64,000 nucleotides of DNA from Candidatus Latescibacterota bacterium (lineage in GTDB: Bacteria > Latescibacterota > UBA2968 > UBA8231): contig OY730476.1 of the NCBI GenBank assembly GCA_963422735.1, forward strand, positions 1,568,001-1,632,000, written 5' to 3'. Under the pieces are notes generated by a model. That model searched no databases. It worked only from the letters and a program-made list of their open reading frames with translations, and had not been told where the DNA came from. The number at the start of each line of letters is the position of its first letter. The stretch's first letter is position 1. Position numbers and translations under genes: made by a program. Of this stretch, positions 4,384-36,319 are shown one piece after another.

Positions 4384-6299
4384 ATGACGGAAACGAGGCC
4401 TTGGTGCTGCTGTTGGCCGCGATCGGTCTCTGCGGTGAGGCGGCACGAGGTAGGTCCCCGGCGGCACGAGGCGGCCGCTGGGGGTCCATCCCACTGGACG
4501 GCAAAGCGGCCCCTGGTAGCCGGCCCGGCGTAGAAGACCCCCACCTTGCGGCCGGCGAGATCGAAGACCGCGAGCTCCACGCGAATTGCATCCATATTTG
4601 CATCCATATTATAGAGAAGGTCGTATTCGATCCGCACGGTACGTTGCGGCCGTCGCCATTGGGGGTGAAGACCGCCGGGTGCAGGGCGAAGCGGCCGATG
4701 AGCGGCTGGTCTAGGCTAAGTAAAGCCACTTGCAGACTGTTGGTTGCCTTCGGGGTCACAGGCTGGGCGACTTCAAACGGGCGAGTGTTGTCGCGGATTC
4801 GCCCTGCAAAGCGGGTGCTGTACGCGAATACCTCGGCCCGGAAATCGATCTCGATCTGTTCGCCGGTCCGCTGCTGGTCCATGCGCGGCAGCGCGACTTC
4901 AAATCCCTCGGCTGTGTGCTGCGCGATGGTGTAGGCGACATCTACCCCACCGATCCGCACAGCCTCCACGGCCTGCACCTGTGCGGTGGTAGCGATGGCT
5001 AGGTGGTCGAACCCGAGATCGTCGGCTGCGATGTGCGGCTCTAGATAGAAGGTGAAGAGGGTTGGGATCAGGGTCGGGGCCTGCAGCGGGTGAATTTGTC
5101 CGAGGACTTGGGAGGCTGGCGGCGGGATGGACGCGCTGAACTGCAAGTAAGCGAGATGGCCCGTCGCCTCGGCGGTCGAGTGGAATTCGGCCCTAAATTG
5201 CGCGTAGCGACGCAGTCGATCGCCCGGCATCGGCCCGCGACCTGCGGCAAAGGCAAAGGGCGCGCTCCAGAAGTTCCAGTCCTCGATGTCTGGGGTGAAG
5301 CCGGCCTGCTCGCCCCTTTGTAAGCGGTTGTAAGTGCGTAGGTTAAGCGGTTGACCAGCGGCGTCGAAGCGGGTGAGCTCATCGCCGCGGAACGTGCGTC
5401 GCCAATAGGGTTGGGGGCGTCGTCGCCCGTATGCGCACTCACATGCAGGCCTCGGCGTCGAGATGGCCGCCCCAAGTCAATGCGCCCAAGTCGGCCGGTT
5501 ACCCCAAGTCGATGATATCGGAGGTATAGCGCGAAAAGGCGGCTGGTCCGGCTCCGTAGATCTCGAATTCGGCGATTTCCCAGATGCCGCGATTGTTTTC
5601 GGGTAGCTCGATGAACACTTGCTGGATGGGTTCGTCGGGCAGGGCCAACTCCATGACGACTTGAGTGTTCTCGCTCACGCGGTGGACGATATCGAAGTCG
5701 AACGAGCTGTTGCGCCAGCTAGCCGCGTACTCGCGGGTGCCGTCGGCTAGAGGGTCGCCGTCGCTGGTACCCACGATGAAGTGCTCGACAAAGCGGGTCG
5801 CTGCAAAGCGCGGACGCGGATAAAAGCGCACACGATCGACAAAGAATCGCCCGCCAAAGTCGAAGACCCAGTACTTGTGCTGGGGGCCATAGCCGGCAAC
5901 GCGAAGATAGTGTCCATCCCCCAGATAGGCGGTTTCCGGGTCGCCATCGAAGATCAGGACGTCGTCTTCGTACCACTGCCGCCAGCCATTCCACTCTATG
6001 ACGAGGATGCGGCCACCAAGGGACTCCACGAGTGGTGCTAAGTTGACCGAGGGAGTTAGCGGCAACGGGCCGATGCGTTCTGGCTGCAGCGCGATTCATT
6101 GGGCCTGGCCGTGCCGCTTGGGATCAACGGCTTCCCAAGATAGCTGCACGAACTCGTACTCGGCTTTCAGCGTCGGTTTGGGCAGGTCGGCCCCGCCGAT
6201 GCGATAGATGGTGAGCGCGTGAGACGGGAAGGCCACCGCAAGGTAGCAGGCCGCCCAGTAGAAGATGCGTTGATACGGCACAGGACTACGGAGCCTCAT
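4377..6299 (-). pseudogene. Fragmented paralog of the FlgD-Ig/CHU_C-tailed secreted protein at 20475-22400
   Basis: ORF pieces 6096-6299 (ALTIYRIGGADLP...YEFVQLSWEAVDPKRHG), 5499-6065 (FDFGGRFF..R.RF.PR, GIWEIAEFEIYG), part of 4181-5230 (DDLGFDHLAI, VFTPNGDG) and 4377-4637 are colinear with 20475-22400 but lie in different frames. Confidence 0.88.
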
Positions 6300-6302
6300 G
6301 TG

Positions 6303-7621
6303 CTAGCTGTCGCGCCTTTTCGCGGTGTGCTTTGCTTTTTTCAGGCGTCCCAATTGCTGGTATGCGTCGCTGAGGTAGAGATGGGCGCGTTCATTGGCTG
6401 GATCCAGCTCGACGGCACGGTCATACGCACGGGCGGCCTCGGCAAAGTGGGCGACGGCCCCGGCCAAATCGCCCGTGCGAGCCGCGGCCAAGCCGAGTCC
6501 GTAGGCGGCCTCGTGCAAGCTAGAGTCGAGTGCGGCGGCGTGCAGGAGGCTAGCCCGAGCCTCCGCATAGTGCTGCTGCTTGAGGAGAGCCATTCCCAGC
6601 CGAGCGTGACTGAGCGGATCTTCTTTGTCGAGGGCGAGGGCTTGGCGAAAGCTCTCGGCTGCGGCGGTCAAATTGCTCTGATAGGTGAAGAGGACGTCTA
6701 GGCTGCTGTGGGCGTCTTTTAGTTCGGGGTTGATGGCGAGGGCGTTTTGATATTCGAGGATGGCGAGGGCGTTTTGGCCTTGCAGGGCGAGATTGTAGCG
6801 GGCCGTGGCCGAGCCGATGGCCACCGCGCTCATCTCGGGCGGAGATTGCTCCGAGCCGATGCCCCGGTGGTGCTGGCGGAGGATTTCCGAGCGCGCTAGA
6901 GCCTTTCCTCCTTGTGCACGCCTCCCGCTGCGCAGGTAGAGTTGGGACAGATTGAAGTGGACTTGGGGCGAATAAGGGTTGAGTTCGATGGCCCACTCTA
7001 GGGCCTTCACAGCTTGGTCGTAGTGCCCTTGAGCTCGGTGCAGCAAGCCGCGGTGGAAATGCGCTTCGGCGTCTTCGGGCGCGTACTGCACGGCGAGTTG
7101 TAGGTGATGTAGGGCTTGGTCTAAGGCGCCCTGTCGTCGGTAGTACAGGCCCAATTTCTTGTGGGCTGGCGCGAGAGTGGAATCCACCTGCAACGCGGCC
7201 AGATAAGCGCGCTCGGCGCGGTGTGCGCTGTCGCGGTAGCTGTACACGAGGCCGAGGTAGTGGCGCGTTGCGGATCGAGTTCGATGGCCCGTTGGAAGGC
7301 TCGCAAGGCCGCGTCGGTTTCGCTGTAGCGGGCTTCGGCGAATGCGCGGGTCATCTCGATGGCACAGAGTAGGTCGTAGAGTTCGGGGGCGCGGGCTAGG
7401 CCGGCGTGCGCTGTTTCCCGCGCTTGCTCGTACTGGCCGACTTGGAGGTAGCAACGCCCTAGATAGCGATAGACAGCCTGCGGTGGGGACGGGCCTTGCA
7501 CGACACGCTGCAAGATCTCAATTGCGGCTTGGTACTCTCGGTTGTGGAAGTGCTGCCGGCCCTCGGCTAGAAGGGGGTCGTCGCGGGCGCAGCTCCAAGC
7601 GAACAAAAAGAGCAGGAGCAC
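6303..7621 (-). pseudogene. Tetratricopeptide-repeat lipoprotein, frameshifted
   Basis: 7121-7621 has a lipobox (FAWSC) and TPRs. The TPRs continue in another frame (6303-7454: HYLGLVY...AHFHRGLL...VHFNL). Frameshift near 7270. Confidence 0.75.
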
Positions 7622-22468: not shown

Positions 22469-25054
22469 ATGGGAAACGCTATGAATATCTTCGGACGCGT
22501 CCTTTTTATTGGGCTAGCTATCGCACTGGCTGGGACTGCCGTGTGCGCCCAGCAGCCCGGCCATCGGGTCGGCGGCAATCGAGTCGTGATCAATGGCCGC
22601 AACCATTGGCAGAACTGGGAATCCGCCCCGGGGACCTTGACGATTTCTCCGGACGGAGAAGTGCGCACCCGGCGCATTCAAAAAAATACCAATGCAATGT
22701 TCGACATTGTCGATTACTTGCGCTTTAATCCGCCGGTGTCTTTCGGCGGCAAAGAACCCGAGGAAATTGTCCTCGCCGATGCCGTCAAGGGCGGCTCTAA
22801 TGTCGCTGATGTGGTCAACCTGCTCGACGGCGATATCACCACCTATTGGCAGCCCGACCCGCTCTCGGCCGACAGGGACTTGGCTTCGCAGTGGTGGTTT
22901 GTGATCGACTTAGGCCGCGTGGTTTTTGCCAAAGAACTCGTGGTGCGCTTTGTCGAGGAGGGCATGGGCGATCCCTTTCTCCTCTTCGAGGTGCTCATCT
23001 CCGACGGGCTGAAGCCAGCGCGTTTGCAAAACAGCGAAAACCCAGCCTTTAAGACCGTGTTGCGGACCTTGAGCAAAAGCAAGAGCCAGCGGGTCTTTAC
23101 TGTTGATCTGACGAACCAACAGCCCAACGTGCAGGCCGCGGCCGTGCGCTTTGTGCAAATTTTGGTCACGGATACCGATGGGATGCTTGGCACGGAAGTC
23201 TCTGCCGGTGAATACGAAACCCTCAGTGAAGAGACGCGTGGCGCGATCCAGTACTTCAAGCGCCAGCCCGATGGCCGCGAGGTGCCCGTTGATCAAGACC
23301 TGTACTACATATTGGATGAGGAACGCCGGGGCAGCATCCGCTACTTTCGCCGGGAATTGCCCCGCTTGGCCGAGTTGGAAGTATGGAACGAAGGGGACGA
23401 ACTAACCGCTGGCATCCTCGCGCGCGGCGGCGTCATCTCCACCAATGCGAAGCAGCCGCTGGCCTTGACCAAGTTTGTCGATGGCGACTTGGCGACCTTC
23501 AATCGCATCTTTTACGGGGTCTCCACAGCGGTGGCTGATCCCGAGTTGGAGTTGGTCTTCGACTTGGGCTCCTTTTATTGGGTCGATACCTTCCGCCTGA
23601 TTTACAACGGCGGTTTGTTCCCTAGCTATCGGATGGATTTTTCCGACGGCACCCTTGCGCCGGACGGCAGTCTCCAGTGGACCACCAAGGCGTCGCTGGG
23701 TTCGCGGCCCCACTCGCGGTTTGAAGGCGAGGCGTTCGAGCCGATTAAGGCGCGGTTTGGCCGCTTTCAGTGGACCTTGAATGCCATTGGTGCCCGCACG
23801 GCCGATATAGCTGAACTACAGTTCTACGGCGAAGGCTTCCAACCGGAGGTCTCGCTGCGGTCAGACCTGATTCGCTTGGGCGGCAGCCGCAATCTGCTGT
23901 CGATTGAGTGGGATGCCGACGCCCCTCCCGGCACCCAAGTGCTGATTCAGACTCGCACGGGCAATGAATTGGGCGAGATACTGCACTATTTCAAAAAAGA
24001 CGGCACAGAAGTGACCGAAAGCGAGTACAACAAGCTGCTGTCGCTGTTCAAGGGCGACACTGTCGCCGAGCAGGTGCCCGGCAGCGATTGGAGCAATTGG
24101 AGCGAGCCCTACGAGGATCCGGCGGGCAGTCCAATTACCTCGCCATCGCCACGGGAATTCCTGACCGTACAGGCGACCTTACTGTCGGAAGACCCAGAGG
24201 TAAGCCCAACGTTGCGCTCGGTCCATCTCAACTTCGCCAATCCCGTTGCACAGCAGCTACTGGGAGAGATCGGCCTGTTCGAGGTGGACGAACTCGGGGT
24301 GCAACGGCCGTTTTCGCTTTATGTGCGGCCGGAATTTGACCGCCGCGATTCGGGTTTTGACGAGTTGTTGTTATTCGCGCCGTCGAACATGGAACTGGAT
24401 ATGGTGGGCCTTTACGGTGGTCGGGTGGCGGATTTCGACAGCGAGACGGGGCCCAGCGCACTGACCGGGGTCGAGGTTCTGCCTACGGGCCGGGACTCGT
24501 TGCACATGCGCTTTGATGCGATACAGCCCAATGGATCTACGGAAGTGCTGAGGCTGGATTTTGAGACTGCGCTTTTTGTCACCGGCGCGGTGTTACAGGC
24601 GGCCCTGCGCAATAGCAGCGCAGACGGCGGTGCTTGGCAGCGGATCGACCCGGGGGAGGCTCTAACGCAGGTCGTCGGCAACACCACGACGATTGTCGCT
24701 GCTGTGGAGCACAACGCTCTGCTTACAAATGTGGCTGTGTTGCCGGAGGCCTTTTCGCCCAACGGCGACGGGATCAACGACCGCACGGTCTTTGCCTTCA
24801 ATGTTGTGCGAGTCGGCGACGATAGCCCGGTAGCCGCCGAGATCTACGATTTGGGAGGCCGCCAAATACGGCGTCTCGCGCAAGAGCGCCCATTTAGCAC
24901 CGGGCCTTATGAGATTGAATGGGATGGTCGGGACGACGGTGGGCGCATGGTGCCGCCGGGTCTGTATTTAGTGCAGCTAAGCGTGGATACTGATATCGAG
25001 GGAACGCAGGTTAAAGACGCGCATATATTCAAGACGGTCTCTGTGGCGTATTGA
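22469..25054 (+). CDS. Secreted protein with two discoidin/jelly-roll-like modules and FlgD-Ig/CHU_C-like C-terminal domain
   Basis: Signal peptide, LLDGDITTYW...WFVIDLGR, LVFDLGS...IAELQFYG, AFSPNGDGIND...WDGRDDGG..VPPGLY. Confidence 0.85.
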   Translation: MGNAMNIFGRVLFIGLAIALAGTAVCAQQPGHRVGGNRVVINGRNHWQNWESAPGTLTISPDGEVRTRRIQKNTNAMFDIVDYLRFNPPVSFGGKEPEEIVLADAVKGGSNVADVVNLLDGDITTYWQPDPLSADRDLASQWWFVIDLGRVVFAKELVVRFVEEGMGDPFLLFEVLISDGLKPARLQNSENPAFKTVLRTLSKSKSQRVFTVDLTNQQPNVQAAAVRFVQILVTDTDGMLGTEVSAGEYETLSEETRGAIQYFKRQPDGREVPVDQDLYYILDEERRGSIRYFRRELPRLAELEVWNEGDELTAGILARGGVISTNAKQPLALTKFVDGDLATFNRIFYGVSTAVADPELELVFDLGSFYWVDTFRLIYNGGLFPSYRMDFSDGTLAPDGSLQWTTKASLGSRPHSRFEGEAFEPIKARFGRFQWTLNAIGARTADIAELQFYGEGFQPEVSLRSDLIRLGGSRNLLSIEWDADAPPGTQVLIQTRTGNELGEILHYFKKDGTEVTESEYNKLLSLFKGDTVAEQVPGSDWSNWSEPYEDPAGSPITSPSPREFLTVQATLLSEDPEVSPTLRSVHLNFANPVAQQLLGEIGLFEVDELGVQRPFSLYVRPEFDRRDSGFDELLLFAPSNMELDMVGLYGGRVADFDSETGPSALTGVEVLPTGRDSLHMRFDAIQPNGSTEVLRLDFETALFVTGAVLQAALRNSSADGGAWQRIDPGEALTQVVGNTTTIVAAVEHNALLTNVAVLPEAFSPNGDGINDRTVFAFNVVRVGDDSPVAAEIYDLGGRQIRRLAQERPFSTGPYEIEWDGRDDGGRMVPPGLYLVQLSVDTDIEGTQVKDAHIFKTVSVAY

Positions 25055-25166: not shown

Positions 25167-26051
25167 TTATTCACCTTCTTCAAACAACCCTTCCTCGATC
25201 GGCATCAGCTCAAAGTCGCCGATAAATTCTCCGCTACAGTACATTTTCGGGTGTTGCGTCAGCGCCCAAAAGGCATCGAAGGTGTCTTCTTTGGTGTCCG
25301 CGTCGAGAAAGGACCAGCCGAGGCCGATGATTGCGCCTTCTTGCAGCGAGTGTCGGCGGCTCAAATGTGGCCCTTCCGGGTGCAGGTCGTCGAAGGGCGT
25401 CAGATAGCATTCGTAGATGACGGTGCCCGGGGAGAGGTGCTCGACCGCGCCCTGCCATCCCACGGTCGAATAGCGTTCCTCTTTGGTCCACAGGGCCTTG
25501 CCCCACAGCCAGTGCCAGTAGTGGCCGTTGAGTGGCGGGATGTAGAGGTGGTAGTTCTGAGTATAGGCGCTGCGGTGGCGCAATTCCACGTGGGGCGCTT
25601 CTGCTTGATCTGCGAAGTGGATGACTTTGTCGCCGCCGTGGTCGGCGTCAATGACGATTTCCCAGATGTCCGCGCCGTGGACGTGGGCACCGGTCAAGCG
25701 GCTGTGGGGAGTGTCGAGCGAGTCGGTGATGCCCTTGTAGAAGCGCCAGATGTCGTCGTACACCTCGGCCATGAAGTATAGACGGTTGAGGGTTTTGTTC
25801 CAGCCGACGGCCGAGCGGCGCACGTAGAAATCCGTGGTGTCGGGTGCGCCGCGCTCGCGGTGCAGTTCCGCGTATTGGGTGTAGTCGTAGAAGTACTCGG
25901 CGGGCACCTTGGCCCAATCGGCCGCATCGCCGTCCATCTGCGGGACGTGGTCGTCGGGGAACTGGAAGACCTTGAAAATGGTGTCTTCGGGGTAGTGGGC
26001 GAGAGCGGGCAGGGCCAACAGCAAAACGCCGACAGTCGCAATCAGATACAT
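25167..26051 (-). CDS. Secreted CBM9/DOMON-like protein, paralog of 19398-20360
   Basis: ATG 26051 after AAGGAG. FQFPDDHVPQMDGDAADW, VGWNKTLNRLYF, DIWEIVIDADHGG and GDFELMPI align with the 19398 protein. Confidence 0.8.
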   Translation of the reverse strand: MYLIATVGVLLLALPALAHYPEDTIFKVFQFPDDHVPQMDGDAADWAKVPAEYFYDYTQYAELHRERGAPDTTDFYVRRSAVGWNKTLNRLYFMAEVYDDIWRFYKGITDSLDTPHSRLTGAHVHGADIWEIVIDADHGGDKVIHFADQAEAPHVELRHRSAYTQNYHLYIPPLNGHYWHWLWGKALWTKEERYSTVGWQGAVEHLSPGTVIYECYLTPFDDLHPEGPHLSRRHSLQEGAIIGLGWSFLDADTKEDTFDAFWALTQHPKMYCSGEFIGDFELMPIEEGLFEEGE

Positions 26052-26156
26052 GATAGAGCTCCTTTTGGGTTTGGACGGCAAAGTAGGCCAAAGCGGGGAT
26101 TAGCTCAAGATGTGTGGGAATGGTTATATTGCAAAACCGGAAAGGAGACAGCCTTT

Positions 26157-27170
26157 ATGCGCCTGCTACTAATTTGGGTCGCCGCGCTTGTTGCCGTCGG
26201 GTGCGGTGGGTCCGGCGAATCGGGCGACAAGCCCACGGAGAAAAAAATTGTCTGGTACGCCCTGATGGTGCATCCCTATGTCGAAGAGGTACAAAAAGGG
26301 GTGATCGGCTATGAGCGCGACACCGGAATCAAGATCAAGCGCCAGATCGGCCAAAGCTGGACCCAAGACAATGAAAACGCCAACGTCGAGCCGCTGGCAG
26401 CTCAGGGCTACAAGGGCTTCTCGATCTACCCAGCCGACGCCAGCGCCGCCAACGGACTCTACGAGGAATTGGTGCAAAACGGGGCCTATGTCGTCAGCTA
26501 TGGAGCGCCGACGACACTGCCGACGCCTGCTTCGTTTTGCGTGGCGACCGATGTGAAACAGGCGGCAATGGAGGCCACCGAGGCGCTGATCGGCTTCATG
26601 GGCGGTAAGGGCAACATCCTCAATGTGCTCGAACTGGTCGAAGACCCCAATACCATCTTGCGCAAAGAAGGCGTTGAGGCGGCGGTGGCCAAATACCCGG
26701 AGGTCCAGATCGTCCAGGAAATCGCTGGCATGGAGTCGATTGAGACCAGTACCGCCAAGATCCAGGACGCGCTCTCGGCGCGAATCGAGGAGATTGACGG
26801 CGTGATTTGCACGGGGTACACGCCGACTGTGGCCGCGGCGACCATCCTAGCGGAGTGGAACCAAGCTCCGGATAACAAGCGCATCCACTTCGTCGGCATC
26901 GACACAGACTCGGTGGTGCTCGACGCGATCCGCCGGGGGGCCATTGACGCGACCATCTCGCAAAACCCCTACGGACACGGCTACATCACGTGCGCCCTCT
27001 TGAGCTATCTGCTCAACGGCTGGCAGGCCAATCCCGACCACTACTTCGTCAACTCGGGTACCGTGCTAGTAACCAAAGACAACGTCGATACCTTCGCGGA
27101 CGAAGTCATGGCCATCACCGCGCGGATTATGGGCGAGTTAGAGACCAAATACCTCAGCCCGCCCCGCTGA
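26157..27170 (+). CDS. Sugar ABC transporter substrate-binding lipoprotein (RbsB-like, CUT2)
   Basis: AGGAG RBS, lipobox VAVGC, Peripla_BP motifs (FVGID...AIRRG.IDATISQNPYGHG). Confidence 0.9.
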   Translation: MRLLLIWVAALVAVGCGGSGESGDKPTEKKIVWYALMVHPYVEEVQKGVIGYERDTGIKIKRQIGQSWTQDNENANVEPLAAQGYKGFSIYPADASAANGLYEELVQNGAYVVSYGAPTTLPTPASFCVATDVKQAAMEATEALIGFMGGKGNILNVLELVEDPNTILRKEGVEAAVAKYPEVQIVQEIAGMESIETSTAKIQDALSARIEEIDGVICTGYTPTVAAATILAEWNQAPDNKRIHFVGIDTDSVVLDAIRRGAIDATISQNPYGHGYITCALLSYLLNGWQANPDHYFVNSGTVLVTKDNVDTFADEVMAITARIMGELETKYLSPPR

Positions 27171-27173
27171 CTC

Positions 27174-28682
27174 GTGCTCGAACTGCAATCCATCAGCAAG
27201 CACTTCCCCGGCGTCCGGGCACTGGACGACGTCTCGCTCTCTTTCCTGCCGGGCCAGATCCACTCCCTAGTCGGCGAAAACGGCGCTGGCAAGAGCACTT
27301 TGCTCAAAATTGTCATCGGGATATACCAGCCCGACGCCGGGCGGATGCTCTTCGATGGCACACTGCTGCGCGTGCGCAACTGTCGCGACTGCCTCGACCG
27401 CGGCATCGGCTTGGTCCACCAAGAGATCCAGGTAGTGGCCGAAGCCAGCGTTGCCGAGAACATCATGCTCGACAAGTTAGACGCCTTCAGCCGGTGGGGC
27501 CGCCTCGACTGGCCACGGCTCGACGACCAAGCGCGGGCCGCGATGGCGCGGGTCGGGCTGGACATTGACCCGCAAGCGCCCATTGGCGATTTAAGCGCGG
27601 CCCACAAACAGCTCGTGCAGATTGCCCGGGTGTTGTCGGCCGAGGCGCGGGTCCTGCTATTAGACGAGCCGACTTCGTCGCTTACTGAGCACGAAGCGGC
27701 CCGGCTCTTTGGCATTTTGCGCCAGTTACAGGAGGCAGGCGTGGCCATCGTCTTTGTCTCGCACAAGTTCGACGAGGTCTATCAGATCGCCGACCAAGTC
27801 AGCGTGTTGCGGGACGGACGACACGTGGGCACGAGGGAGTTGGCCGGGCTGCCGCGCGCCGAGCTTATTGAGATGATGATCGGTCGGCGCGTGGAGACGG
27901 CTTCGTTTGGCACACCGGCGGTGGATCGGGCGCGGGAAGTGCTCAGGGTCGAGGGGCTGTACGCGCCGGGCCGAGCGCACCGAGTGAGCTTTTCTCTCTA
28001 CGCTGGCGAGATTTTGGGCTTGTACGGCTTGGTGGGGGCCGGGCGCACCGAGTTGGCGCGGCTGCTGGTGGGGGCCGAGCAGGCCGAGCGCGGTGCCGTC
28101 TATATCCAAGGGACAAAAGCGCGGATCGGGTCGGTGGCCGACAGCCTGTACAAATACAGCATGGGCTACGTAACCGAAAACCGCAAAGAGGAAGGCCTAC
28201 TATTGGACTCCACCGTGCGGACTAACCTCGGCATTGCGATATGGGAGCGGATCGTCGGCAAGTTCACCCGTCGGATCGACGACCGGGCGGAGACCCAAGC
28301 CGTGCAGGCGATGGTCGCGGCGCTGGATATTCGCACGACAGGCTTAGAGCAGGTGGTAGCGCAACTCAGCGGTGGCAATCAGCAGAAAGTCAGCTTGGGC
28401 AAGTGGCTGGCCGCCGGCTGCGACATCCTGATCGTCGATGAGCCGACCGTCGGGGTGGACATCCAGGCCAAGGCACAGATCCACCGCTTGCTGTGGGACT
28501 TGGCGGCCAAAGAAGGCAAGGCCATCATTTTGATCTCGTCGGACATGCCGGAGATCATCAGCTTAGCGGGGCGGATCCTCGTCTTTAAGGACAAGCAGAT
28601 CGTCCACGAAATCGCCGAGATCCACGAGCAGGAATTGAGCTACGACGCGATAAGCCGCCGCATCGGCCTGCATCTGAACTGA
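27174..28682 (+). CDS. Sugar ABC transporter ATP-binding protein (RbsA-like, two NBDs)
   Basis: GENGAGKSTL, LLLDEPT, LSGGNQQK, DEPTVGVD. Confidence 0.95.
   Translation: MLELQSISKHFPGVRALDDVSLSFLPGQIHSLVGENGAGKSTLLKIVIGIYQPDAGRMLFDGTLLRVRNCRDCLDRGIGLVHQEIQVVAEASVAENIMLDKLDAFSRWGRLDWPRLDDQARAAMARVGLDIDPQAPIGDLSAAHKQLVQIARVLSAEARVLLLDEPTSSLTEHEAARLFGILRQLQEAGVAIVFVSHKFDEVYQIADQVSVLRDGRHVGTRELAGLPRAELIEMMIGRRVETASFGTPAVDRAREVLRVEGLYAPGRAHRVSFSLYAGEILGLYGLVGAGRTELARLLVGAEQAERGAVYIQGTKARIGSVADSLYKYSMGYVTENRKEEGLLLDSTVRTNLGIAIWERIVGKFTRRIDDRAETQAVQAMVAALDIRTTGLEQVVAQLSGGNQQKVSLGKWLAAGCDILIVDEPTVGVDIQAKAQIHRLLWDLAAKEGKAIILISSDMPEIISLAGRILVFKDKQIVHEIAEIHEQELSYDAISRRIGLHLN
28661..28682 (+). repeat. 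22-bp direct repeat, left copy (3' end of the ABC ATPase gene)
   Basis: CATCGGCCTGCATCTGAACTGA matches 35336-35357 at 21/22. Confidence 0.9.
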
Positions 28683-28815
28683 GTCAATGGGAAGTTCTCT
28701 GGGGTGAGGGAACATCCCTGAAAACCAGATAGGTTTCTTGACAGGCAAAGCCCTTTTTTTTGATACCTAGCCCCAAAACAGATAGACATAGAAGACATAG
28801 AATTGAGGATGTGAT

Positions 28816-31800
28816 ATGTCCGACGAAAAGACACAGCCTACGGAAAACCACCAAGATACCCAGTGGACTCGTTTTCTTGAGGAATTGCGCCAGTGGCCTT
28901 GCGACGCTCCTCAATGGGAAGGAGTCCAAAGATTTATCGACCAAGTCCAACTCGTGGCAGAGCAGAAGGGTCGAGAACGGGAAGAGGCCGGACGATTCCA
29001 ACTCCAGCAGGTCTTGGAGAAATTGCAAGAGAACTACGAGGTAATTCTCGTCGATTACTTTCAATGCTCAAACCTATCCAAATGGGAAGCGGCTAGCTGC
29101 CCTATGGACCAAGTTGCCGAGCGGACGGAGGCTGTCAAAGATCTGCTAGCGCAACTGGACCGACGTCAAACGCTCGACCAAGAGGTTCCACAAAATCACT
29201 TGGAAGGCCGCAAGAAACGGACGGAATTGGGTGAAGTAGAGCTTCGGATCAGCAAGTTGGTGGAACGACTCGGCCAAGATTTTCCTACGGATCTCTTGGA
29301 GCCGCCTTTGGACGACGCTGCCGAAGAGAATGATCAGCTATCCCCGGAGCCACCAAGTTCCGAAAGAGACTCTTCTGGTGCTCCCACTGACCAAAAAGCT
29401 GAAGAAGACGCCAGCTCATTCAAAAAAGCTCTGCAAAAGGAAGCCATTCTTGAAGAAAAACCCCAAACGCCGCCTCTCCCTCAACCAGAAGACCGCGAGC
29501 CAGCCCCTGTCCAAGCTACCCCACCTGATGAGAAGCCCCTGTCTTTGCGCTCGGCTCAAGAGGTGGCGGTCCTGTTGCAAGCAGAAGACTCGGATGAACA
29601 CTGGGAATCGTTGGGATGGAGCTTACTGGCTGAAGATGACTTGGCCGGAGCCTACTGGCTGGCTCGTTCTCTGAAAGCAGCGGGCCGCGATGTGCCGGTT
29701 GCCCCGGAATTGCTTGCCGCGCTGCAAGAGGCGCACTGGTTGGAGAATGATACCGACAGTTTGGTCTCCGATATCCGGCAGATTGCTTCGGAGTATGCTC
29801 CCCAAAGTACTACTTCCGAGCGGTTGGTAGGGTTGGCTGCGGCTTTGCGTCCCAGCTTGGTTGCCCCGCACACTGGCTTGGTCGGCTGGCTCCCGCAAAA
29901 AGATGAAGTCAATCCCGGACTGGGTACGCTAGCCGAGGCTGTTCGCACTTTTGCGTCAGCAGGTCATCCCTTGCGGGCTGAAGATCAACAGGGAGCAGAA
30001 GGCAGGGCAACTCACGAGAAGGACATTAAAGAGACCGTTGAGCAGGCCCGTCGCTTCTTGGCCACTAATCAGGTTAGCAAGCTGAAGTTCAAACGGGCAA
30101 CCGATGTGTTGCATCGGTTGGTGTCCCCGGAAGGGGATTTAACCCTCTTGCTCACTCCGGTCATTAAAAATAAGGCCGACCAAGTAGCGCAAGTCCGGCA
30201 GCGCATAATCGATTTCGGGGAGCGCAAGCAGATTGAACGTTGCCTCCATCAGATTGATCAAGACTTGGCCGGGGCCAAAAAACGCAAAATCACAGGAGAT
30301 CCCATCAATCAGTTGGTGCGGAGTGTCGAAGAAGCTGTCGGTCTGGCCAATAGCTGGTGTTCCCTAATTACGCGGGAACGGGTCGCCCGAGACAAGGGCG
30401 ACTGGTGGGCCGGTCATGTGGAGAAACTGCGCCGCCGAGTACAGGAGGTCCTCCCCGATGTCAATGTCGAACTCAAGCGAATGCAAGACCAACTGCAAGA
30501 AGAAGCCGCGTTGGGCCATGTTCTACGGTGGGCCATAGGCCAAGTAACAGGTATGCTCGGCCTGGAGGAGCAAGCCGATATTGAGGGACCTGAAGAAAGG
30601 ATGAAGAGCGGGAGCAATTCACTGGGCATAGCTTTATCCCACCGCTTGTTGTATGTCCCCGAAATTTTCCTCGACGAAGATGGCCATCCTACAAAGGATC
30701 AGGAGGGCGATATTGCCAAGTATTTGCGTCAGTCCCTAGCTGAAAAACGCGCACTCCCCATGGCTTGGGAGATGCGGATTGAAGGACAGGATTTTCGTTT
30801 CACTGATGTATTGATGAATGCGTTGGAAGACTATGAGGATCGCCAACGGCTTGAAGATCGAAACGACGAGGAGCTCAAAAGTGCTCAAGCAGGGCTAAAG
30901 GACGACGTCAACCGTGTGGAAGGTGCTATCGAAAAGGGACTAGTGGACGGCCTGATCTCAGAAAAAGAACGCGCCGCTCTCAGTGCTAAACTGCCGAGAG
31001 TTGAAGAGGCTTTGTACTTCCCACCTTTGTTCCGGCGATTAGATGATATCGGAGAGCAATTGGAGCAAAAGCTCGAAGAACGGCTACGAGAGTTGGAAGT
31101 TCAATGGAAGGAAATGAGGCAAGGCTTAGCGCAGAGTATCCAAGCCGACCTAACAACCGCGGCGACATCTATTCAAAGAGCTTTTACGCAGCGCGATACT
31201 AGGGTTATAGAAGAAAGTCTGGCCCACTTGCGCGAAATTCGCGCCGGTGAACGCGAATGGCAGGATGAGTGGTTTGCCCGACCCGACAAGCTCGACATCT
31301 TCAAGAAGTTCCAAGAGGCTTGTCCTCGCATTGAAGAAGCACTTAGCAGTTTGGGTAGTGTTGCGCGACTAGCCGAAGTGATTGAGCAAGGCCAAACTTG
31401 GGCAGACATGGAGTTTGGCGAATTGCCCCAAGAATGCCAGGAAGAGGCCGCCAAAGTGCTGCGTTCTTGGCACCAGCTAAAACGCCTTGATGGACAACAG
31501 AGTAAAAACCAAAGATATATCCAAGTTCTTTTAGAGTACTTGGGTTTCCGCCCGTCGGAAGGAAAATCGGCCGTGAGCGTACGCGTGAAAAAGCGCGATC
31601 AAGATTGGCTCTACTGCCAAGTGGATGCTTTGGCCAGCGACCTAGTGCGGCCCATCCCGCAGTTGGGCTCGCAAGCCAGCGGCTGCTACAATGTGGTGTG
31701 TTTTTGGAAACGCCCTAGGGCTGCCTCCATTGGAGCGTTTTTGCGCGAATTGGGACTGGATAATCAGACGGTGGTTGTTTTTTCTTTCCAGCGATTGTCT

Positions 31801-34050
31801 GAACGATCGCGGCGCGACATTGCCGCCCGAGCCAGAGAAAAGCAATTAGCTCTGGTAGTGCTAGATGAAATTTTGCTGGTATTTTTGGCGGGGCTTGACG
31901 ATGCTCGCCTTCCAATCTTCCTACGTTGTAGTCTGCCCTACGCTGCCCTCAATCCCTATACGCCGTTCCAAGCGGGAAATGTACCACCTGAAATATACTA
32001 CGGCCGCGATGAGATGATCCGCCAGCTAAACGAGGCGTCTTGCATCGTGTTCGGCGGGCGACAGCTGGGCAAATCCTCCCTGTTGCGCCAAGTGGAGCGC
32101 GAGTTCCACCAACCCACACGCAAGCAATACGCTTGGGTTGAGGACATCAAGCTAGTGGGAGATATACTTACAGGCGAGCAGCCGGCTCGGCTGTGGATCA
32201 AATTGCGCGATGGCTTTAAGAATAACTCTCTAATAAGAGCAACAGAGGCAAACCAGCCTGAAAGGATCATCCAATACATCAAGAAAGCGATGGAGGAGTC
32301 GCCCCAGCTGCGAGTTTTGGTTCTGTTTGACGAAGCCGATCACTTTCTCTCCGCCGATGCCAAGAACGGTTTCCAAGTGGTCGAGGGCTTGCGGAACTTG
32401 ATGTCGAATACCCAAGGGCGCTTCAGAGTAGTCTTTGCTGGCCTGCACGATGTCCAGCGTTTTAACAATATCGCCAATCAGCCTCTGGCCCATTTCGGTC
32501 AGAGCTTATTGATAGGACCTCTAGAGGCTGAGCCAGCCCAGCAGTTAGTGCAAGAGCCGCTAGATATATTGGGCTACCGGTTCGCCGATGAGACCACCGT
32601 GCTCAAAGTTTTGTCCTACACCAATTACCACCCGGGTTTGATACAGTACTTCTGTCACGAACTCGTCAACCGGCTCCAGGAAAAAAAGTATTCGTCGGGA
32701 CCGCCCTATGAAGTGCTCGCAGACGATGTAGAGGCAGTATATCGCACCCCTAGAGCACGGCAGATCATTCGGGAACGGCTTGACTGGACCTTGGCCCTAG
32801 ATCATCGCTACCAGTGCATCGCTTGGACTATGATCTATGCCCAGAAAGAGACGCGCGATAGCTATGTCCGTTCATTCAGCGCAGCCGAACTTCTCGAACT
32901 AGCGCATGAGGAGTGGTCGCAGGGTTTCGAGAAATGCGATAGCCAAGTTTTTAGGGTATTGCTCGAAGAAATGGTTGGCTTGGGTATATTGGTGCGCAAT
33001 TTGGAAAACCAATATCTGCTACGCAGTCCCAATCTGGTTCGCCTCATGGGTACCGTAGAGGATATAGAGTACCGTTTGCTAGAACTGGCTGAAAAATCTC
33101 CACCGTCTCAACTTCGTCCCGAAAGTCAGCATGTGTTGCTAGAGGCCCAAAACCGCCTGTATAGTCCCTTGACGTTGACGCAGCAAAGCGATTTGCAAGA
33201 AAGTGGGGAGTCGGGCGTAGCTTTAGTTTTTTGCTCTCCAGCATTGGGGCTGAATGTGTTGGACCAAGCCTTAAACCGCATAGGCGGAAGCGAGATTCCC
33301 GCCCAAGAATTGACCCGAGTCGAACGAACCTGTGCGTGGTTGCAAGACTATGCTGCCCGGAAACGACCCGGGGCCGACCAGTCCTTGGTGTATGGCCAAC
33401 TCAAGGGCACAGGAGGCAATATGGCCCAATGCGTCTGGCGCGTATGGCAAATGTGCGAAATTTTTAAGCAGGGGCGAAGACGGCCGCTAAAAGTGGTTTT
33501 TGCTTTCAATCCAGCGGCCACTCGGTCTTGGCTGAAGGTAGATGCAGACCAGCGCACAGATCGGGAAAATCGGGCGGAGCTCATGTATCTGCGCCGTTGG
33601 GACGAAGTAGGCATTCAGCAGGCGTTGAGCCAAGCCGAGAAAATGGATTCGCCCGAGGTCTGTCAAAAGGTACTGGAAGCTACGGGGGGATGGCCTTTCT
33701 TGCTGGACGCTCTTTTGCGCCGGTGTGGCGACGATACCAACCCTCGACCTTATGCAGATACCTTGATCGAGGAGACGGGGTCTGAGTTGCTACGTCAGGT
33801 TGGATTGGATTATCAGGAGTCTCTGGTTTTGCGGAAGCTCGCCGAGCTTGGCACAGTCCAAGATACGGATGAAGATTTAGAGACCTTGAGAAGTTTTATA
33901 AATGAAGACACTCTCGAAGATGACGCTCCTCTTACGATAGATGCCTGTAGGCTGACTGTGGAGTTTTTGCACCGAATGCAATGCCTTAAAAAGAATAACG
34001 AGGAGTACCGCGTTGAGTCCGTCTTGGGTCAAGTAGTTAGCCTTCTATGA
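28816..34050 (+). CDS. 1744-aa STAND-like P-loop NTPase with long helical N-terminus and a second, degenerate STAND-like module
   Basis: NPYTPF...YYGRD, Walker A GGRQLGKS (~32053-32076), Walker B VLVLFDEAD, TNYHPGLIQ, winged-helix-like LLEEMVGLGIL, and a later ATGGWPFLL. Confidence 0.85.
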   Translation: MSDEKTQPTENHQDTQWTRFLEELRQWPCDAPQWEGVQRFIDQVQLVAEQKGREREEAGRFQLQQVLEKLQENYEVILVDYFQCSNLSKWEAASCPMDQVAERTEAVKDLLAQLDRRQTLDQEVPQNHLEGRKKRTELGEVELRISKLVERLGQDFPTDLLEPPLDDAAEENDQLSPEPPSSERDSSGAPTDQKAEEDASSFKKALQKEAILEEKPQTPPLPQPEDREPAPVQATPPDEKPLSLRSAQEVAVLLQAEDSDEHWESLGWSLLAEDDLAGAYWLARSLKAAGRDVPVAPELLAALQEAHWLENDTDSLVSDIRQIASEYAPQSTTSERLVGLAAALRPSLVAPHTGLVGWLPQKDEVNPGLGTLAEAVRTFASAGHPLRAEDQQGAEGRATHEKDIKETVEQARRFLATNQVSKLKFKRATDVLHRLVSPEGDLTLLLTPVIKNKADQVAQVRQRIIDFGERKQIERCLHQIDQDLAGAKKRKITGDPINQLVRSVEEAVGLANSWCSLITRERVARDKGDWWAGHVEKLRRRVQEVLPDVNVELKRMQDQLQEEAALGHVLRWAIGQVTGMLGLEEQADIEGPEERMKSGSNSLGIALSHRLLYVPEIFLDEDGHPTKDQEGDIAKYLRQSLAEKRALPMAWEMRIEGQDFRFTDVLMNALEDYEDRQRLEDRNDEELKSAQAGLKDDVNRVEGAIEKGLVDGLISEKERAALSAKLPRVEEALYFPPLFRRLDDIGEQLEQKLEERLRELEVQWKEMRQGLAQSIQADLTTAATSIQRAFTQRDTRVIEESLAHLREIRAGEREWQDEWFARPDKLDIFKKFQEACPRIEEALSSLGSVARLAEVIEQGQTWADMEFGELPQECQEEAAKVLRSWHQLKRLDGQQSKNQRYIQVLLEYLGFRPSEGKSAVSVRVKKRDQDWLYCQVDALASDLVRPIPQLGSQASGCYNVVCFWKRPRAASIGAFLRELGLDNQTVVVFSFQRLSERSRRDIAARAREKQLALVVLDEILLVFLAGLDDARLPIFLRCSLPYAALNPYTPFQAGNVPPEIYYGRDEMIRQLNEASCIVFGGRQLGKSSLLRQVEREFHQPTRKQYAWVEDIKLVGDILTGEQPARLWIKLRDGFKNNSLIRATEANQPERIIQYIKKAMEESPQLRVLVLFDEADHFLSADAKNGFQVVEGLRNLMSNTQGRFRVVFAGLHDVQRFNNIANQPLAHFGQSLLIGPLEAEPAQQLVQEPLDILGYRFADETTVLKVLSYTNYHPGLIQYFCHELVNRLQEKKYSSGPPYEVLADDVEAVYRTPRARQIIRERLDWTLALDHRYQCIAWTMIYAQKETRDSYVRSFSAAELLELAHEEWSQGFEKCDSQVFRVLLEEMVGLGILVRNLENQYLLRSPNLVRLMGTVEDIEYRLLELAEKSPPSQLRPESQHVLLEAQNRLYSPLTLTQQSDLQESGESGVALVFCSPALGLNVLDQALNRIGGSEIPAQELTRVERTCAWLQDYAARKRPGADQSLVYGQLKGTGGNMAQCVWRVWQMCEIFKQGRRRPLKVVFAFNPAATRSWLKVDADQRTDRENRAELMYLRRWDEVGIQQALSQAEKMDSPEVCQKVLEATGGWPFLLDALLRRCGDDTNPRPYADTLIEETGSELLRQVGLDYQESLVLRKLAELGTVQDTDEDLETLRSFINEDTLEDDAPLTIDACRLTVEFLHRMQCLKKNNEEYRVESVLGQVVSLL

Positions 34051-35333
34051 GCTTGGGACTGACTAATTCCCTCGTGCAGATGCCCACGGCCCGGCAACTG
34101 CTCAACCTCATGCTGCGCGACCTGAGGAGCGGCCGCAGTGTGTTGGGCTTGCTACCCGAAGGAGTTGATTCCAGTCTGCTGCGGTCGGCTTTGTGGGATG
34201 GTCTGGAGCACTTGCATCTGCATATTGAAGAGATTGCTATATCCGATTTAGACGCCCAAATACCAATAGCGGCTTTAGGTCAAGCTATGGGAGTAGATTG
34301 GGGTGCTCCTACTACAGCGCGCACGGTAGGCAATCTCTTAAAACAAGCAGACTGGCTCGAAATTTTGTTCCTCGAGGGCTTTAACGAATTAACTGAAGAA
34401 AGCCGAGTACAGTGGCTGCAACTTATGGAGAGGTGGGCACGAGAATGCCAAGGTGGGGACTATGCTGACGCGAGCCCCCCGGCACTATGTCTGCTGGCTG
34501 AAGCATCGAAAATACCTTACTCACTTCCCGCAGCGAATGTATTGCTGTCCATCCATGTCTGGAGGGGCATCCCCACTACTGCGGAAATGCGGTTGTTGTG
34601 CCAATTGGCCGGTGAGCAGGATACTACTCCTTTAAGCTGCTGGAAAGAGCACACGATTCCATCCCTTGCGGGTTCTGATTTGGAATTGGTCGATTATTTG
34701 TGGGCAGAAGAGTATTGCGATGGAAGAGAATTGGCGGGTGTACTACAGATTTTTGCTGAGAGGCGCGGCTGGAATCAGGATGAGTTAGAGGCTTGGTCGG
34801 CTCATAGACTGCCCCAAGATGCGACTACTTGGCTAGATGACTGGCCGTTGTCTCCTCGTTTATACAGGGCTTGGGCCCGGGGGATAGTGCATTGGACCCC
34901 GGAGCACGGTCTGGAACGCCACAGCGCGGTCTTGGCCATGCTGGATCAACAAGAAGCCTTGGATCATCGATTGTGGCGTGGTCAGGCAGAATTTCTCTTG
35001 GCCCAAATTGACCAAATACGATTGGGTTTGTGTGCTCACCTCAACGAAACCTATGGACCAGCTTGGCCTTATAAGTGGCAAAAACCGGAGACCGATATAG
35101 AATGTCAGGAGGTAAGAGAAACGCCCTTTGCCTGTCAGTGGGGGCACCTGAAATTTTTGCTGCAAAACTGCTCGGAACTGCATAGAGAACGACGGTGGTC
35201 TTCCTTAGTGCAATACTCGTGGCACATTCGCACGAAACTAGCGCACTATCGCCCTATATCCCTCCAAGAATACGAAAAATTCTACCGGGAACGAATGCTT
35301 AGTCATCGGAACGGTCCATTGACCGCTTGGTGA
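34047..35333 (+). CDS. 428-aa protein with degenerate P-loop-like N-terminus and C-terminal HEPN-like domain
   Basis: ATGA overlap with the NTPase gene. C-terminal ...LNETYG..W...WGHLKFLL...IRTKLAHYRPIS contains R-x4-H. Confidence 0.7.
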   Translation: MSLGLTNSLVQMPTARQLLNLMLRDLRSGRSVLGLLPEGVDSSLLRSALWDGLEHLHLHIEEIAISDLDAQIPIAALGQAMGVDWGAPTTARTVGNLLKQADWLEILFLEGFNELTEESRVQWLQLMERWARECQGGDYADASPPALCLLAEASKIPYSLPAANVLLSIHVWRGIPTTAEMRLLCQLAGEQDTTPLSCWKEHTIPSLAGSDLELVDYLWAEEYCDGRELAGVLQIFAERRGWNQDELEAWSAHRLPQDATTWLDDWPLSPRLYRAWARGIVHWTPEHGLERHSAVLAMLDQQEALDHRLWRGQAEFLLAQIDQIRLGLCAHLNETYGPAWPYKWQKPETDIECQEVRETPFACQWGHLKFLLQNCSELHRERRWSSLVQYSWHIRTKLAHYRPISLQEYEKFYRERMLSHRNGPLTAW

Positions 35334-35335
35334 TA

Positions 35336-35357
35336 CATCGGCCTGCATCTGAATTGA
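35336..35357 (+). repeat. 22-bp direct repeat, right copy
   Basis: CATCGGCCTGCATCTGAATTGA, 2 nt before the permease ATG at 35360. Confidence 0.9.
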
Positions 35358-35359
35358 CT

Positions 35360-36319
35360 ATGGAACGCCTACGCAGACTCATGCGGCACAACGACTCCGG
35401 AATCGCCTTGTCGGCGGGGTTGTTGTTTATGGGATGTGCGCTCAGCTCGGAGAGCTTTCTATCGGCGTACAACCTCTTCAATATCTCCCGGATCGTTGCG
35501 TTTTCCGCGTTGGTGGCGCTGGCGCAGGCGGTAGTGCTGGTCGCCGGGGGGATGAACCTATCCGTGGGGGCCATCGGCGGCTTGGCGACCATCGCCACTG
35601 GGTACTGCATCGAGGTGTTGGGTCTGCCGGGGTGGTTAGCGGCGTTGGTGGCACTGGGGATCGGAGGCGTGGCCGGGTGGGTCAACGGGGTCATCATCAC
35701 GCGGTTGCAGATCAATTCCTTTATCGCCACGCTGGCTACGCTCTTTGTCTTTACGGGGTTGGTACATGGGTTTTCCGAAGGCTACGCCTATACGGACATC
35801 CCTCGGGAATTCACGTTTTTAGGGCGACAGAAGTTTTTGGGGCTGTCGAATTTGTTCTGGACGATGGGGCTGGTGCTGCTGGCGACGCACTACGCATTTC
35901 GGCACACGGTTTTCGGGCGGCGGCTGTTGGCGACCGGGGGGAATCAGGAGGCGGCTAGGCTAGCGGGGATCCATACCGACCGGATGATTTTGCTGTCGCA
36001 CGTGCTGTCGGGTGGAGTGGGTGCGCTGGCCGCGGTGTTGTGGGTCTCGCGGATGGGCTCGGCGCAACCGGCGACTGGTAAGGACTGGCTGATTACCAGC
36101 TTTGCGGTAGCCATTGTTGGGGGGACTGGGCTGGCGGGTGGGCGCATCTCGGCACTGGGCCTGCTATTAGGGGCAGTCATCATCGTTCTCATCAAGAACG
36201 GCTTGGTGATGCTGGAGGCCAACGTCTATTACGAGCAGGCGTTTTTGGGGTCGATCATCCTGTTGGCCGTGGTGGTGAGCCGGGTGCGGGAGCTGTATGG
36301 CGGGCGAGGCGGAGGTTAG
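35360..36319 (+). CDS. Sugar ABC transporter permease (RbsC-like)
   Basis: GGMNLSVG, FIATLA, TVFGRRLLATGGNQEAARLAGI, AIVGGTGLAGG. Confidence 0.93.
   Translation: MERLRRLMRHNDSGIALSAGLLFMGCALSSESFLSAYNLFNISRIVAFSALVALAQAVVLVAGGMNLSVGAIGGLATIATGYCIEVLGLPGWLAALVALGIGGVAGWVNGVIITRLQINSFIATLATLFVFTGLVHGFSEGYAYTDIPREFTFLGRQKFLGLSNLFWTMGLVLLATHYAFRHTVFGRRLLATGGNQEAARLAGIHTDRMILLSHVLSGGVGALAAVLWVSRMGSAQPATGKDWLITSFAVAIVGGTGLAGGRISALGLLLGAVIIVLIKNGLVMLEANVYYEQAFLGSIILLAVVVSRVRELYGGRGGG

Follow-up and report, generated by a model that had tools for sequence, protein, structure and literature searches.

Two-gene systems that combine an active STAND NTPase with an inactive one have been predicted before. 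In the nSTAND2 counter-invader system, a computational prediction by Kaur et al. (2021; eLife 10:e70394, PMC8195603), a mobile operon encodes, in the part of that article available here, one active STAND and one STAND with eroded nucleoside triphosphate (NTP) motifs that carries a GT4 or HEPN effector, and the authors predict a toroidal hetero-multimer for such pairs. Here we describe two genes of comparable design in a 64,000-nucleotide stretch of a Candidatus Latescibacterota bacterium genome (assembly GCA_963422735.1, contig OY730476.1, positions 1,568,001 to 1,632,000, forward strand), hereafter called the window. Gene 1 encodes a giant protein predicted to be an NTP-competent STAND/ORC-like NTPase; gene 2 encodes a smaller protein in which a module modelled as a dead STAND is followed by a probable HEPN RNase domain. 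We consider the pair rather likely to be a horizontally mobile two-gene conflict cassette, most likely an anti-phage abortive-infection RNase system. The preliminary description of the locus, made from the letters alone, had called the system undescribed. That claim is not supported for the two-gene design, since an operon of an active STAND and an inactive STAND-HEPN or STAND-GT4 was predicted in the available part of PMC8195603; the family itself is unnamed in PADLOC, Pfam and NCBIfam. Literature searches found no paper describing the family, and Figure 6-source data 1 of PMC8195603 might list it. The features of the pair are:

28816-34050, + strand: gene 1 (P0001), 1744 amino acids (aa), predicted AAA+/STAND-class NTPase (open reading frame (ORF), motif, Pfam and alignment data)
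32053-32076, + strand: gene 1 Walker A, GGRQLGKS (aa 1080-1087), with positions invariant in 22 sequences
32314-32340, + strand: gene 1 Walker B, VLVLFDEAD (aa 1167-1175), with positions invariant in 22 sequences
34047-35333, + strand: gene 2 (P0002), ORF of 428 aa
34047-34925, + strand: gene 2 aa 1-293, predicted inactive STAND-like module (AlphaFold2 model, fold matches, column counts)
34926-35330, + strand: gene 2 aa 294-428, HEPN-like, nearest Swt1-like, putative RNase domain (model, VIA, hhalign, sub-threshold Pfam)
35229-35246, + strand: putative catalytic motif R395-T-K-L-A-H400 (Rx4H), conserved in 165 relatives

The two genes are coupled, as had been noticed at the outset, by an ATGA at 34047-34050 in which the stop of gene 1 overlaps the start of gene 2. 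Relatives of gene 2 were found at 18 loci in contigs representing one genome per species (10 Latescibacterota, 2 Binatia, 1 Blastocatellia and 5 Chloroflexota). Of these loci, 17, spread over four phyla, have a homologue of gene 1 immediately upstream of gene 2; the 18th holds mere fragments of both genes. The window and 10 Latescibacterota loci share the 4-base overlap. Gene 1 and gene 2 are strictly co-conserved, as the preliminary description had expected. A profile of the C-terminal domain of gene 2 finds at least 494 clusters at 50% identity, 360 of them at E <= 1e-10, and nearly all of the best 150 of these 494 are ~420-430 aa long with the domain at the C-terminus. For the C-terminal 745 aa of gene 1, a 90% cluster database contains at least 959 relatives, 1000-3000 aa long, none of which bears an informative name. 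Of 31 genomes of the genus, 8 carry the pair (the window's own counted), one of them in broken form; in genome G002, gene 2 lies in two pieces ~1.25 kb apart (G002:C1:5377058-5379459).

The product of gene 1 contains ~1000 N-terminal aa, an NTPase module at ~aa 1050-1430 and ~300 C-terminal aa. Across 22 homologues, Walker A residues G1080, G1081, G1085, K1086 and S1087 and Walker B residues D1172, E1173, A1174 and D1175 are invariant, and conservation in the 22-sequence alignment peaks over aa 950-1450. Three arginines after Walker B (R1193, R1202 and R1215) are invariant too, an arginine-finger role being assignable to them only with a solved structure. An acidic, proline-rich stretch at ~aa 150-250 is poorly conserved. 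Pfam gives only AAA-type matches to gene 1 (aa 1062-1214; AAA_22 at 30.4 bits against a cut-off of 27); across the 22 homologues the matched families are AAA_22 (22), AAA_16 (20), ATPase_2 (10), TniB (7), nSTAND6 (5) and nSTAND1 (2). The NTPase module also aligns with genuine nSTAND2 domains over 213 columns (hhalign probability 93.9, P 1.6e-7). Because of the invariant Walker motifs, the spread of Pfam families and the nSTAND2 alignment, gene 1 is, judged by its sequence, an NTP-competent member of the STAND/ORC-like AAA+ assemblage, in agreement with the intact Walker motifs and STAND class first proposed for it.

Outside this module, aa 1-260, 250-620, 600-960, 900-1060 and 1440-1744 matched none of the reference alignments used with hhalign, and PDB sequence searches with P0001 and with a gene 1 homologue profile gave nothing useful. 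Searches of gene 1 against Pfam, PADLOC and NCBIfam detected no nuclease, protease, TIR, SIR2 or other effector family, and searches of gene 1 and its 22 homologues against Pfam detected no TPR or other repeat sensor. NCBIfam produced just one spurious 14-bit match to the two proteins.

The alignment of the NTPase module raises the question of whether the pair is merely a divergent member of the described nSTAND2 two-gene system. The logic is the same, namely a mobile two-gene operon with an active STAND and an eroded, inactive STAND fused to HEPN (PMC8195603, in the part available), and the gene 1 module is distantly alignable at the hhalign probability given above. However, the nSTAND2 Pfam model, PF20702, matches neither gene in the window's own genome even at E <= 10, matches 0 of 30 same-genus genomes, 7 of them with the pair, and is absent from the Pfam matches of 22 gene 1 and 31 gene 2 relatives. 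We set the family apart from nSTAND2 because this model matches neither gene. Elsewhere in the family to which the genus belongs, the same model does find genuine nSTAND2 pairs, of ~350 + 600-900 aa. The architectures differ as well: nSTAND2 ORFs are ~350-940 aa long, whereas those here encode 1744 and 428 aa, with ~1000 extra N-terminal aa in gene 1; both nSTAND2 partners match one model, whereas the partners here have no detectable mutual sequence similarity and are not recognisable paralogues; and, among the top 150 of 494 clusters, the effector here is always HEPN-like, with no GT4 variant. On this evidence membership of the nSTAND2 system is quite unlikely.

Genuine PF20702 genes occur in 10 of the 168 genomes of the phylum, none of them in the window's genus (loci L051-L062). 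Some form adjacent pairs, for example a 347-aa and a 599-aa ORF (G139:C1:1381117-1382928).

The N-terminal part of gene 2 carries a Walker-B-like strand, LEILFLEG, at aa 103-110, and GK[ST] is absent after the first strand; both features had been read correctly from the start. Among 165 full-length representatives, to which the column counts of gene 2 refer, the acidic position of Walker B is variable (D 51, E 32, S 14, R 12). An AlphaFold2 model of gene 2 was built on 31 relatives (predicted local distance difference test (pLDDT) 87.3, predicted template modelling score 0.83). In the model, aa 1-293 adopt a nucleotide-binding-domain fold with a helical lid and a winged-helix-like hairpin. Structure comparison with VIA aligns residues 1-301 with Cdc6 (7jgr_G; Z 11.7, root-mean-square deviation 4.7, 223 aligned), 2qen (Z 11.2), TnsC (7mbw, Z 10.9), the TIR-NLR WRR4A (9qlv, Z 10.6) and CED-4 (Z 9.9), and Foldseek on the gene 2 model agrees, also finding Apaf-1 and ORC, with E down to 2.8e-5. 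The predicted structure, with VIA Z 10-11.7 to Cdc6/ORC, TnsC, NLRs and Apaf-1, bears out the inactive STAND-like module of the preliminary description. As modelled, aa 1-~300 of gene 2 are an inactive STAND module of ORC/Cdc6-STAND type without a P-loop. A further alignment of gene 2 (A1) lists no invariant arginine within aa 1-290, where only R16 and R240 reach >=90%, and a finger is assignable only with a solved structure.

A relation of gene 2 to gene 1 as its truncated paralogue was considered and dropped. BLASTP of gene 2 against gene 1 found no similarity, and hhalign was negative too, including a comparison of the N-terminal part of gene 2 with the C-terminal region of gene 1 (P 0.024).

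The C-terminal end of gene 2 reads ...IRTKLAHYRPIS..., and in a separate model aa 294-428 are all-helical (pLDDT 87.6). All 165 relatives have R395 and H400, and 160 have A399; at position 396, 142 have N, 21 have T and 2 have S. The residues W310, R325 and W340 do not vary either, and the domain has conserved motifs of its own, HRLWRGQ and FACQWGH. The window has RT where most relatives have RN, which had been taken as a possible sign of attenuation. That idea finds no support: because T occurs in 21 of the 165 with R, A and H conserved, RT is a clade variant and not a lesion.

Several comparisons relate this domain to HEPN. In hhalign, it aligns with 16 genuine HEPN_Swt1 domains of related genomes over 95-109 columns with RNxxAH in register (P 1.4e-4); the controls gave P 0.25 for reversed sequences, P 0.24 for the N-terminal domain and P 0.011 for the best of 27 unrelated comparisons. 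HEPN_Swt1 is also the Pfam family matched by most gene 2 members, namely 4 of 31, all sub-threshold (best E 0.028), and a neighbouring protein-atlas cluster has been auto-named 'putative Swt1-like HEPN domain-containing protein'. In VIA, HEPN entries make up 9 of the top 50 rows (4rgp, 1jog, 5yep, 7ae2, 2hsb, 4txa, 1ylm, 8oz7 and 6tug; Z 5.0-6.0), Z 5-7 falling under the tool's caution line for helical bundles. The HEPN content of 7ae2 (chain A, a HEPN toxin) and 2hsb was taken from the entry titles; 1ylm presumably contains a HEPN domain, as presumably do 4rgp and 6tug (which we take to be Csm6), 1jog (HI0074), 5yep (chain B, a HEPN toxin), 4txa (Roquin) and 8oz7 (AbiA). A PDB sequence search with the gene 2 homologue profile gave nothing useful, and a six-frame genome search with HEPN_Swt1 at E <= 0.001 did not match gene 2. 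The lines in favour are each weak but concordant; they tentatively place the domain nearest to Swt1-like HEPN, and the C-terminal domain of gene 2 is a probable divergent HEPN RNase domain. With Swt1-like HEPN (PF18731) it shares the RNxxAH core, a helical domain of ~115-135 aa and the in-register profile alignment. In contrast to those domains, which are N-terminal to an active ATPase, it is C-terminal to a dead STAND, stays below the Pfam gathering score and carries the extra conserved motifs.

Genuine HEPN_Swt1 domains are present in 28 of 61 related genomes (the window's own counted), many of them N-terminal in ~1115-aa ORFs (L020-L049). These ORFs are probably DUF499/Hma-type ATPases like those in the part of PMC12839542 available here. 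The window's own genome has one HEPN_Swt1 domain in a 378-aa ORF elsewhere (G000:C1:4466224-4466592).

The pair lies in a 6.65-kb insert of lower GC content, which separates the ATPase gene of a sugar ATP-binding cassette (ABC) operon from the permease gene. The boundaries and flanks are:

25860-27170, + strand: periplasmic binding protein gene, flank, same sugar ABC operon
27174-28682, + strand: two-domain ABC ATPase gene, intact flank outside the system (ABC_tran E 1e-53)
28661-28682, + strand: left repeat copy, last 22 bases of the ABC ATPase gene including its stop, host-derived (empty-site alignment)
28683-28815, + strand: left non-coding cassette end, with TTGACA hexamer at 28738-28743 and GAGGA ribosome-binding site at 28807-28811
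35336-35357, + strand: right repeat copy, directly before the permease start (ATG at 35360)
35360-36319, + strand: ABC permease gene, intact flank outside the system (BPD_transp_2 E 1.1e-35)

The 22-bp direct repeats are identical at 21 of 22 positions, and GC is 0.52-0.55 between them and 0.59-0.64 outside. The two + strand genes are the only cargo, no other ORF of the insert being conserved across the compared loci. All 5 same-genus genomes without the pair that were checked have an empty site, in which the 22-mer is single-copy and the ATPase gene leads directly to the permease gene. The repeats, the GC step and these empty sites in relatives show that the pair is the entire cargo of a 6.65-kb insertion, as first supposed. 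At all insertion sites compared, the left ~40 bases of the cassette with the ribosome-binding site are kept. The promoter and terminator scan called no full sigma-70 site in 28683-28815, with counts not above those of shuffles, and Rfam and tRNA scans of the window gave no matches.

All 7 placed genus copies (the window, L002, L004, L006 and L007-L009) sit in the same orthologous ABC operon, the broken G002 copy being unplaced. They use three junctions, namely ATPase|permease, binding protein|ATPase and permease|permease. Five of the 7 have direct repeats of host origin, 22, 22, 72, 51 and 22 bp long; L008 and L009 yielded none. A ~55-bp right end after the gene 2 stop is conserved in L003, L004, L005, L010 and L013; the window, L002 and L006 lack it and have the host repeat right at the stop codon. 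In a public run (X7), one contig, of depth 392, connects 28660 with 35336, so that its junction runs exactly from repeat to repeat. It belongs to a relative of the window's genome, because its flanks are ~9% diverged from the window. Near-identical insert contigs occur in the same run at depth 5-8, so filled and empty forms coexist in one sample. The cassette has no recombinase gene, and its proteins are 56-81% identical between genomes that share 88-97% identity in the ABC proteins of the flanks.

The insertion route may have been homology-facilitated illegitimate recombination or the re-entry of a circle excised at the repeats. Two other origins were rejected: a transposon, suggested by TniB/TnsC/MuB-like ATPase similarity, as neither a transposase nor terminal inverted repeats are present; and an integrase-type att site, as the repeats are host sequence whose length and place differ between insertions.

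That the 7 located genus copies all occupy one orthologous operon, at three junctions, could also be read as a sign of a housekeeping or regulatory function connected with the sugar transporter. This is highly improbable. All 5 checked relatives have an intact operon that lacks the pair; no ABC genes accompany the pair in L003, L005, L010, L013 or any locus of the other phyla; and the insert has a GC content unlike its flanks and diverges much faster than the operon.

At several loci, neighbours of the pair belong to restriction systems. Neighbour families were defined by clustering, with Pfam checks on L005, L015, L011 and L016. An HsdM-like type I restriction-modification gene adjoins the pair in L005, L010, L013, L015 and L017, and an HsdS-like gene is near it in L005, L010 and L013. 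A GmrSD-like gene adjoins it in L015 and L017 and a Uma2 nuclease gene in L011; IS481/Mu-type transposases flank it in L016. The restriction-system neighbours point to defence islands. It is because of these neighbours, the patchy distribution, the empty sites and a divergence faster than that of the flanks that we read the pair as a conflict system.

A mobile, patchy, recombinase-free cassette inside an operon could also be a selfish addiction or toxin-regulator module, or one that targets plasmids or other mobile elements and not phages, and HEPN toxins are, in the part of the literature available, common in toxin-antitoxin pairs. Against this, the insert holds no MNT or other antitoxin-like small gene, and the restriction-system neighbours suggest defence islands. 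We judge such a role very unlikely. A further consideration against an addiction module is that, to our knowledge, a 1744-aa NTPase far exceeds any known antitoxin in size.

For an anti-phage conflict cassette, the following mechanism can be proposed. Gene 1 would be the switch and probably the sensor, binding and hydrolysing NTP. A trigger from the invader would be sensed by the unassigned regions of gene 1 or through nucleic-acid binding by the dead STAND, and the triggered gene 1 would oligomerise in an NTP-dependent manner. The dead STAND of gene 2 would then dock on, or co-assemble with, the gene 1 oligomer. The HEPN domains, with one Rx4H per chain, would thereby be brought into dimers that form a composite RNase site, and RNA cleavage would halt growth and phage production. 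The physical binding, the RNase activity, the trigger and the defence phenotype are what we infer here. A complex prediction for gene 1 aa 1050-1744 with gene 2 aa 1-300 scored 0.00, was run with no controls and counts neither way.

A more ambitious version of this scheme, possible if doubtful, would make the pair a 'sensor-executor' NLR pair. In such a pair the giant NTP-competent STAND would sense infection and template a dead-STAND hetero-oligomer that unites the HEPN RNases; the system, found in at least four phyla, would be an independently evolved prokaryotic counterpart of paired/helper NLRs and of NAIP-NLRC4, and its cassette may re-enter the operon recombinase-free via short host repeats.

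Several results weigh against the conflict-cassette reading and the mechanism proposed for it. The first concern the RNase. Besides the caution attached to the VIA scores, P0002 has no Pfam match at E <= 1 and does not reach the 27.5-bit gathering cut-off of PF18731, and the hhalign match to HEPN_Swt1 has a probability of just 52.9, so that with P 1.4e-4 the Swt1-like kinship is distant at best. Foldseek of the isolated C-terminal domain against the PDB, a comparison that the preliminary description had proposed, found no match (best E 3.6). The Swt1-like HEPN tail of that description is kept in part: the Rx4H, predicted to persist in homologues, does so throughout and the independent lines agree, but the assignment falls below formal thresholds.

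Further points of this kind concern gene 1, the partnership and the setting. Most of the length of gene 1 is conserved, without an obvious hypervariable sensor, and its homologues are split into two or three ORFs in L007, L010, L012, L015 and L016, either by decay or by assembly errors. A gene 2 hidden Markov model run against 119 gene 1 homologues found no gene 1-gene 2 fusion. In hhalign the dead STAND of gene 2 gave only P 0.087-0.15 against the gene 1 NTPase and P 0.071 against nSTAND2; since the partners lack sequence-profile similarity, hetero-oligomerisation by paralogy is unsupported. Seven of the 11 Latescibacterota copies lie in a metabolic ABC operon and not in a defence island. Among IMG/VR viral contigs 14 pattern matches were obtained and none was confirmed, and tblastn found no relatives on plasmids.

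As a separate observation, gene 1 of L010 is interrupted by ~1.2 kb (6110-7326) with a 297-aa ORF, which has no Pfam match; like the divided gene 2 of G002, this reflects either decay or an assembly error.

With every HEPN line below threshold, and with ~1000 N-terminal and ~300 C-terminal residues of gene 1 without an assigned fold, an alternative division of labour has to be weighed. The HEPN-like tail would be no nuclease but a ligand-binding, nucleic-acid-binding or structural domain, gene 2 would be a sensor or adaptor, and the effector would lie within gene 1. A receptor role has been suggested for inactive STANDs, with nucleic acids as ligands (PMC8195603, in the part available). However, R and H of the Rx4H are present in 165 of 165 relatives, with the N/T/S and A positions conserved alongside, which is the pattern expected of a catalytic site, and no effector family was detected in gene 1. 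We regard this alternative as unlikely. It is also to be considered that non-catalytic HEPN domains are said, in work by Anantharaman and colleagues from 2013, usually to lose the Rx4H-type motif, which speaks for the RNase reading.

Two further observations concern the window. Upstream of the ABC operon, 22469-25054 encodes an 861-aa protein with a weak FlgD_ig match just above the cut-off; its CHU_C (type IX secretion signal) and F5/8 type C matches are both below the cut-offs. A second run (X9), whose RNA nature is only guessed, yielded short (200-300 nt) identical contigs on 28824-35948 with A-rich loose ends. This run is uninformative on transcription, because its RNA nature is guessed and its small contigs span parts of both genes and the flanks.

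If the mechanism is true, the pair would offer a clean experimental model for how an active STAND recruits and activates an inactive one, a question that is equally open for plant helper NLRs, for BREX BrxB and for the predicted nSTAND2 and iSTAND systems of 2020-2021. The pair would also be an additional system, absent from PADLOC v2 (2023), the catalogue that was checked. The family is sizeable, with 494 or more clusters of gene 2 at 50% identity and 959 or more of gene 1, and is mostly found in poorly studied phyla, namely Latescibacterota, Binatia, Acidobacteriota and Chloroflexota. In addition, its insertion pattern, with three junctions of one operon and host repeats of 22-72 bp, is a natural case for recombinase-free movement of defence cassettes.

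Beyond nSTAND2, the pair resembles several known systems in part. In PADLOC-DB v2.0.0, gene 1 matches only PDC-S01 (E 0.0034) and LmuB (E 0.012), below meaningful levels, and gene 2 matches no model, which is the outcome that the preliminary description had named as favouring novelty. As for HEPN-MNT toxin-antitoxin systems, no nucleotidyltransferase family was found in either gene or in the insert. The likeness to eukaryotic paired/helper NLRs and to NAIP-NLRC4 is conceptual, namely two STAND-fold proteins with divided labour, and the fold matches of gene 2 include NRC2 (8rfh_A, Z 9.3) and NAIP/NLRC4 (8fvu_B, Z 9.3). However, no homology extends beyond the common STAND fold, and both members of eukaryotic NLR pairs generally retain nucleotide binding.

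Avs, AVAST and bNACHT systems share with the pair the STAND NTPase core and the logic of an effector activated by oligomerisation. Consistent with this, the gene 2 module matches Avs3 (8dgc_A, Z 8.4), Avs5 (9jap_A, Z 9.4) and AVAST5 (9nc9_D, Z 8.7) in fold. In Avs, AVAST and NACHT proteins, effector and sensor are on one chain, whereas the effector here is on a second, ATPase-dead chain; PADLOC gave no Avs or NACHT match.

In BREX, a large active ORC/Cdc6-like BrxC is likewise accompanied by a separate inactive STAND, BrxB (PMC12839542, in the part available), and BrxC is among the fold matches of gene 2 (9zdx_A, Z 8.7; 9zll_A, Z 8.4). However, PglZ, methyltransferase, BrxA and BrxL genes are absent nearby, the neighbours in the window being ABC transporter genes; no such gene cluster is common to the 18 loci, and PADLOC gave no BREX match. 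In contrast to BREX, the inactive STAND here bears an HEPN-like effector of its own.

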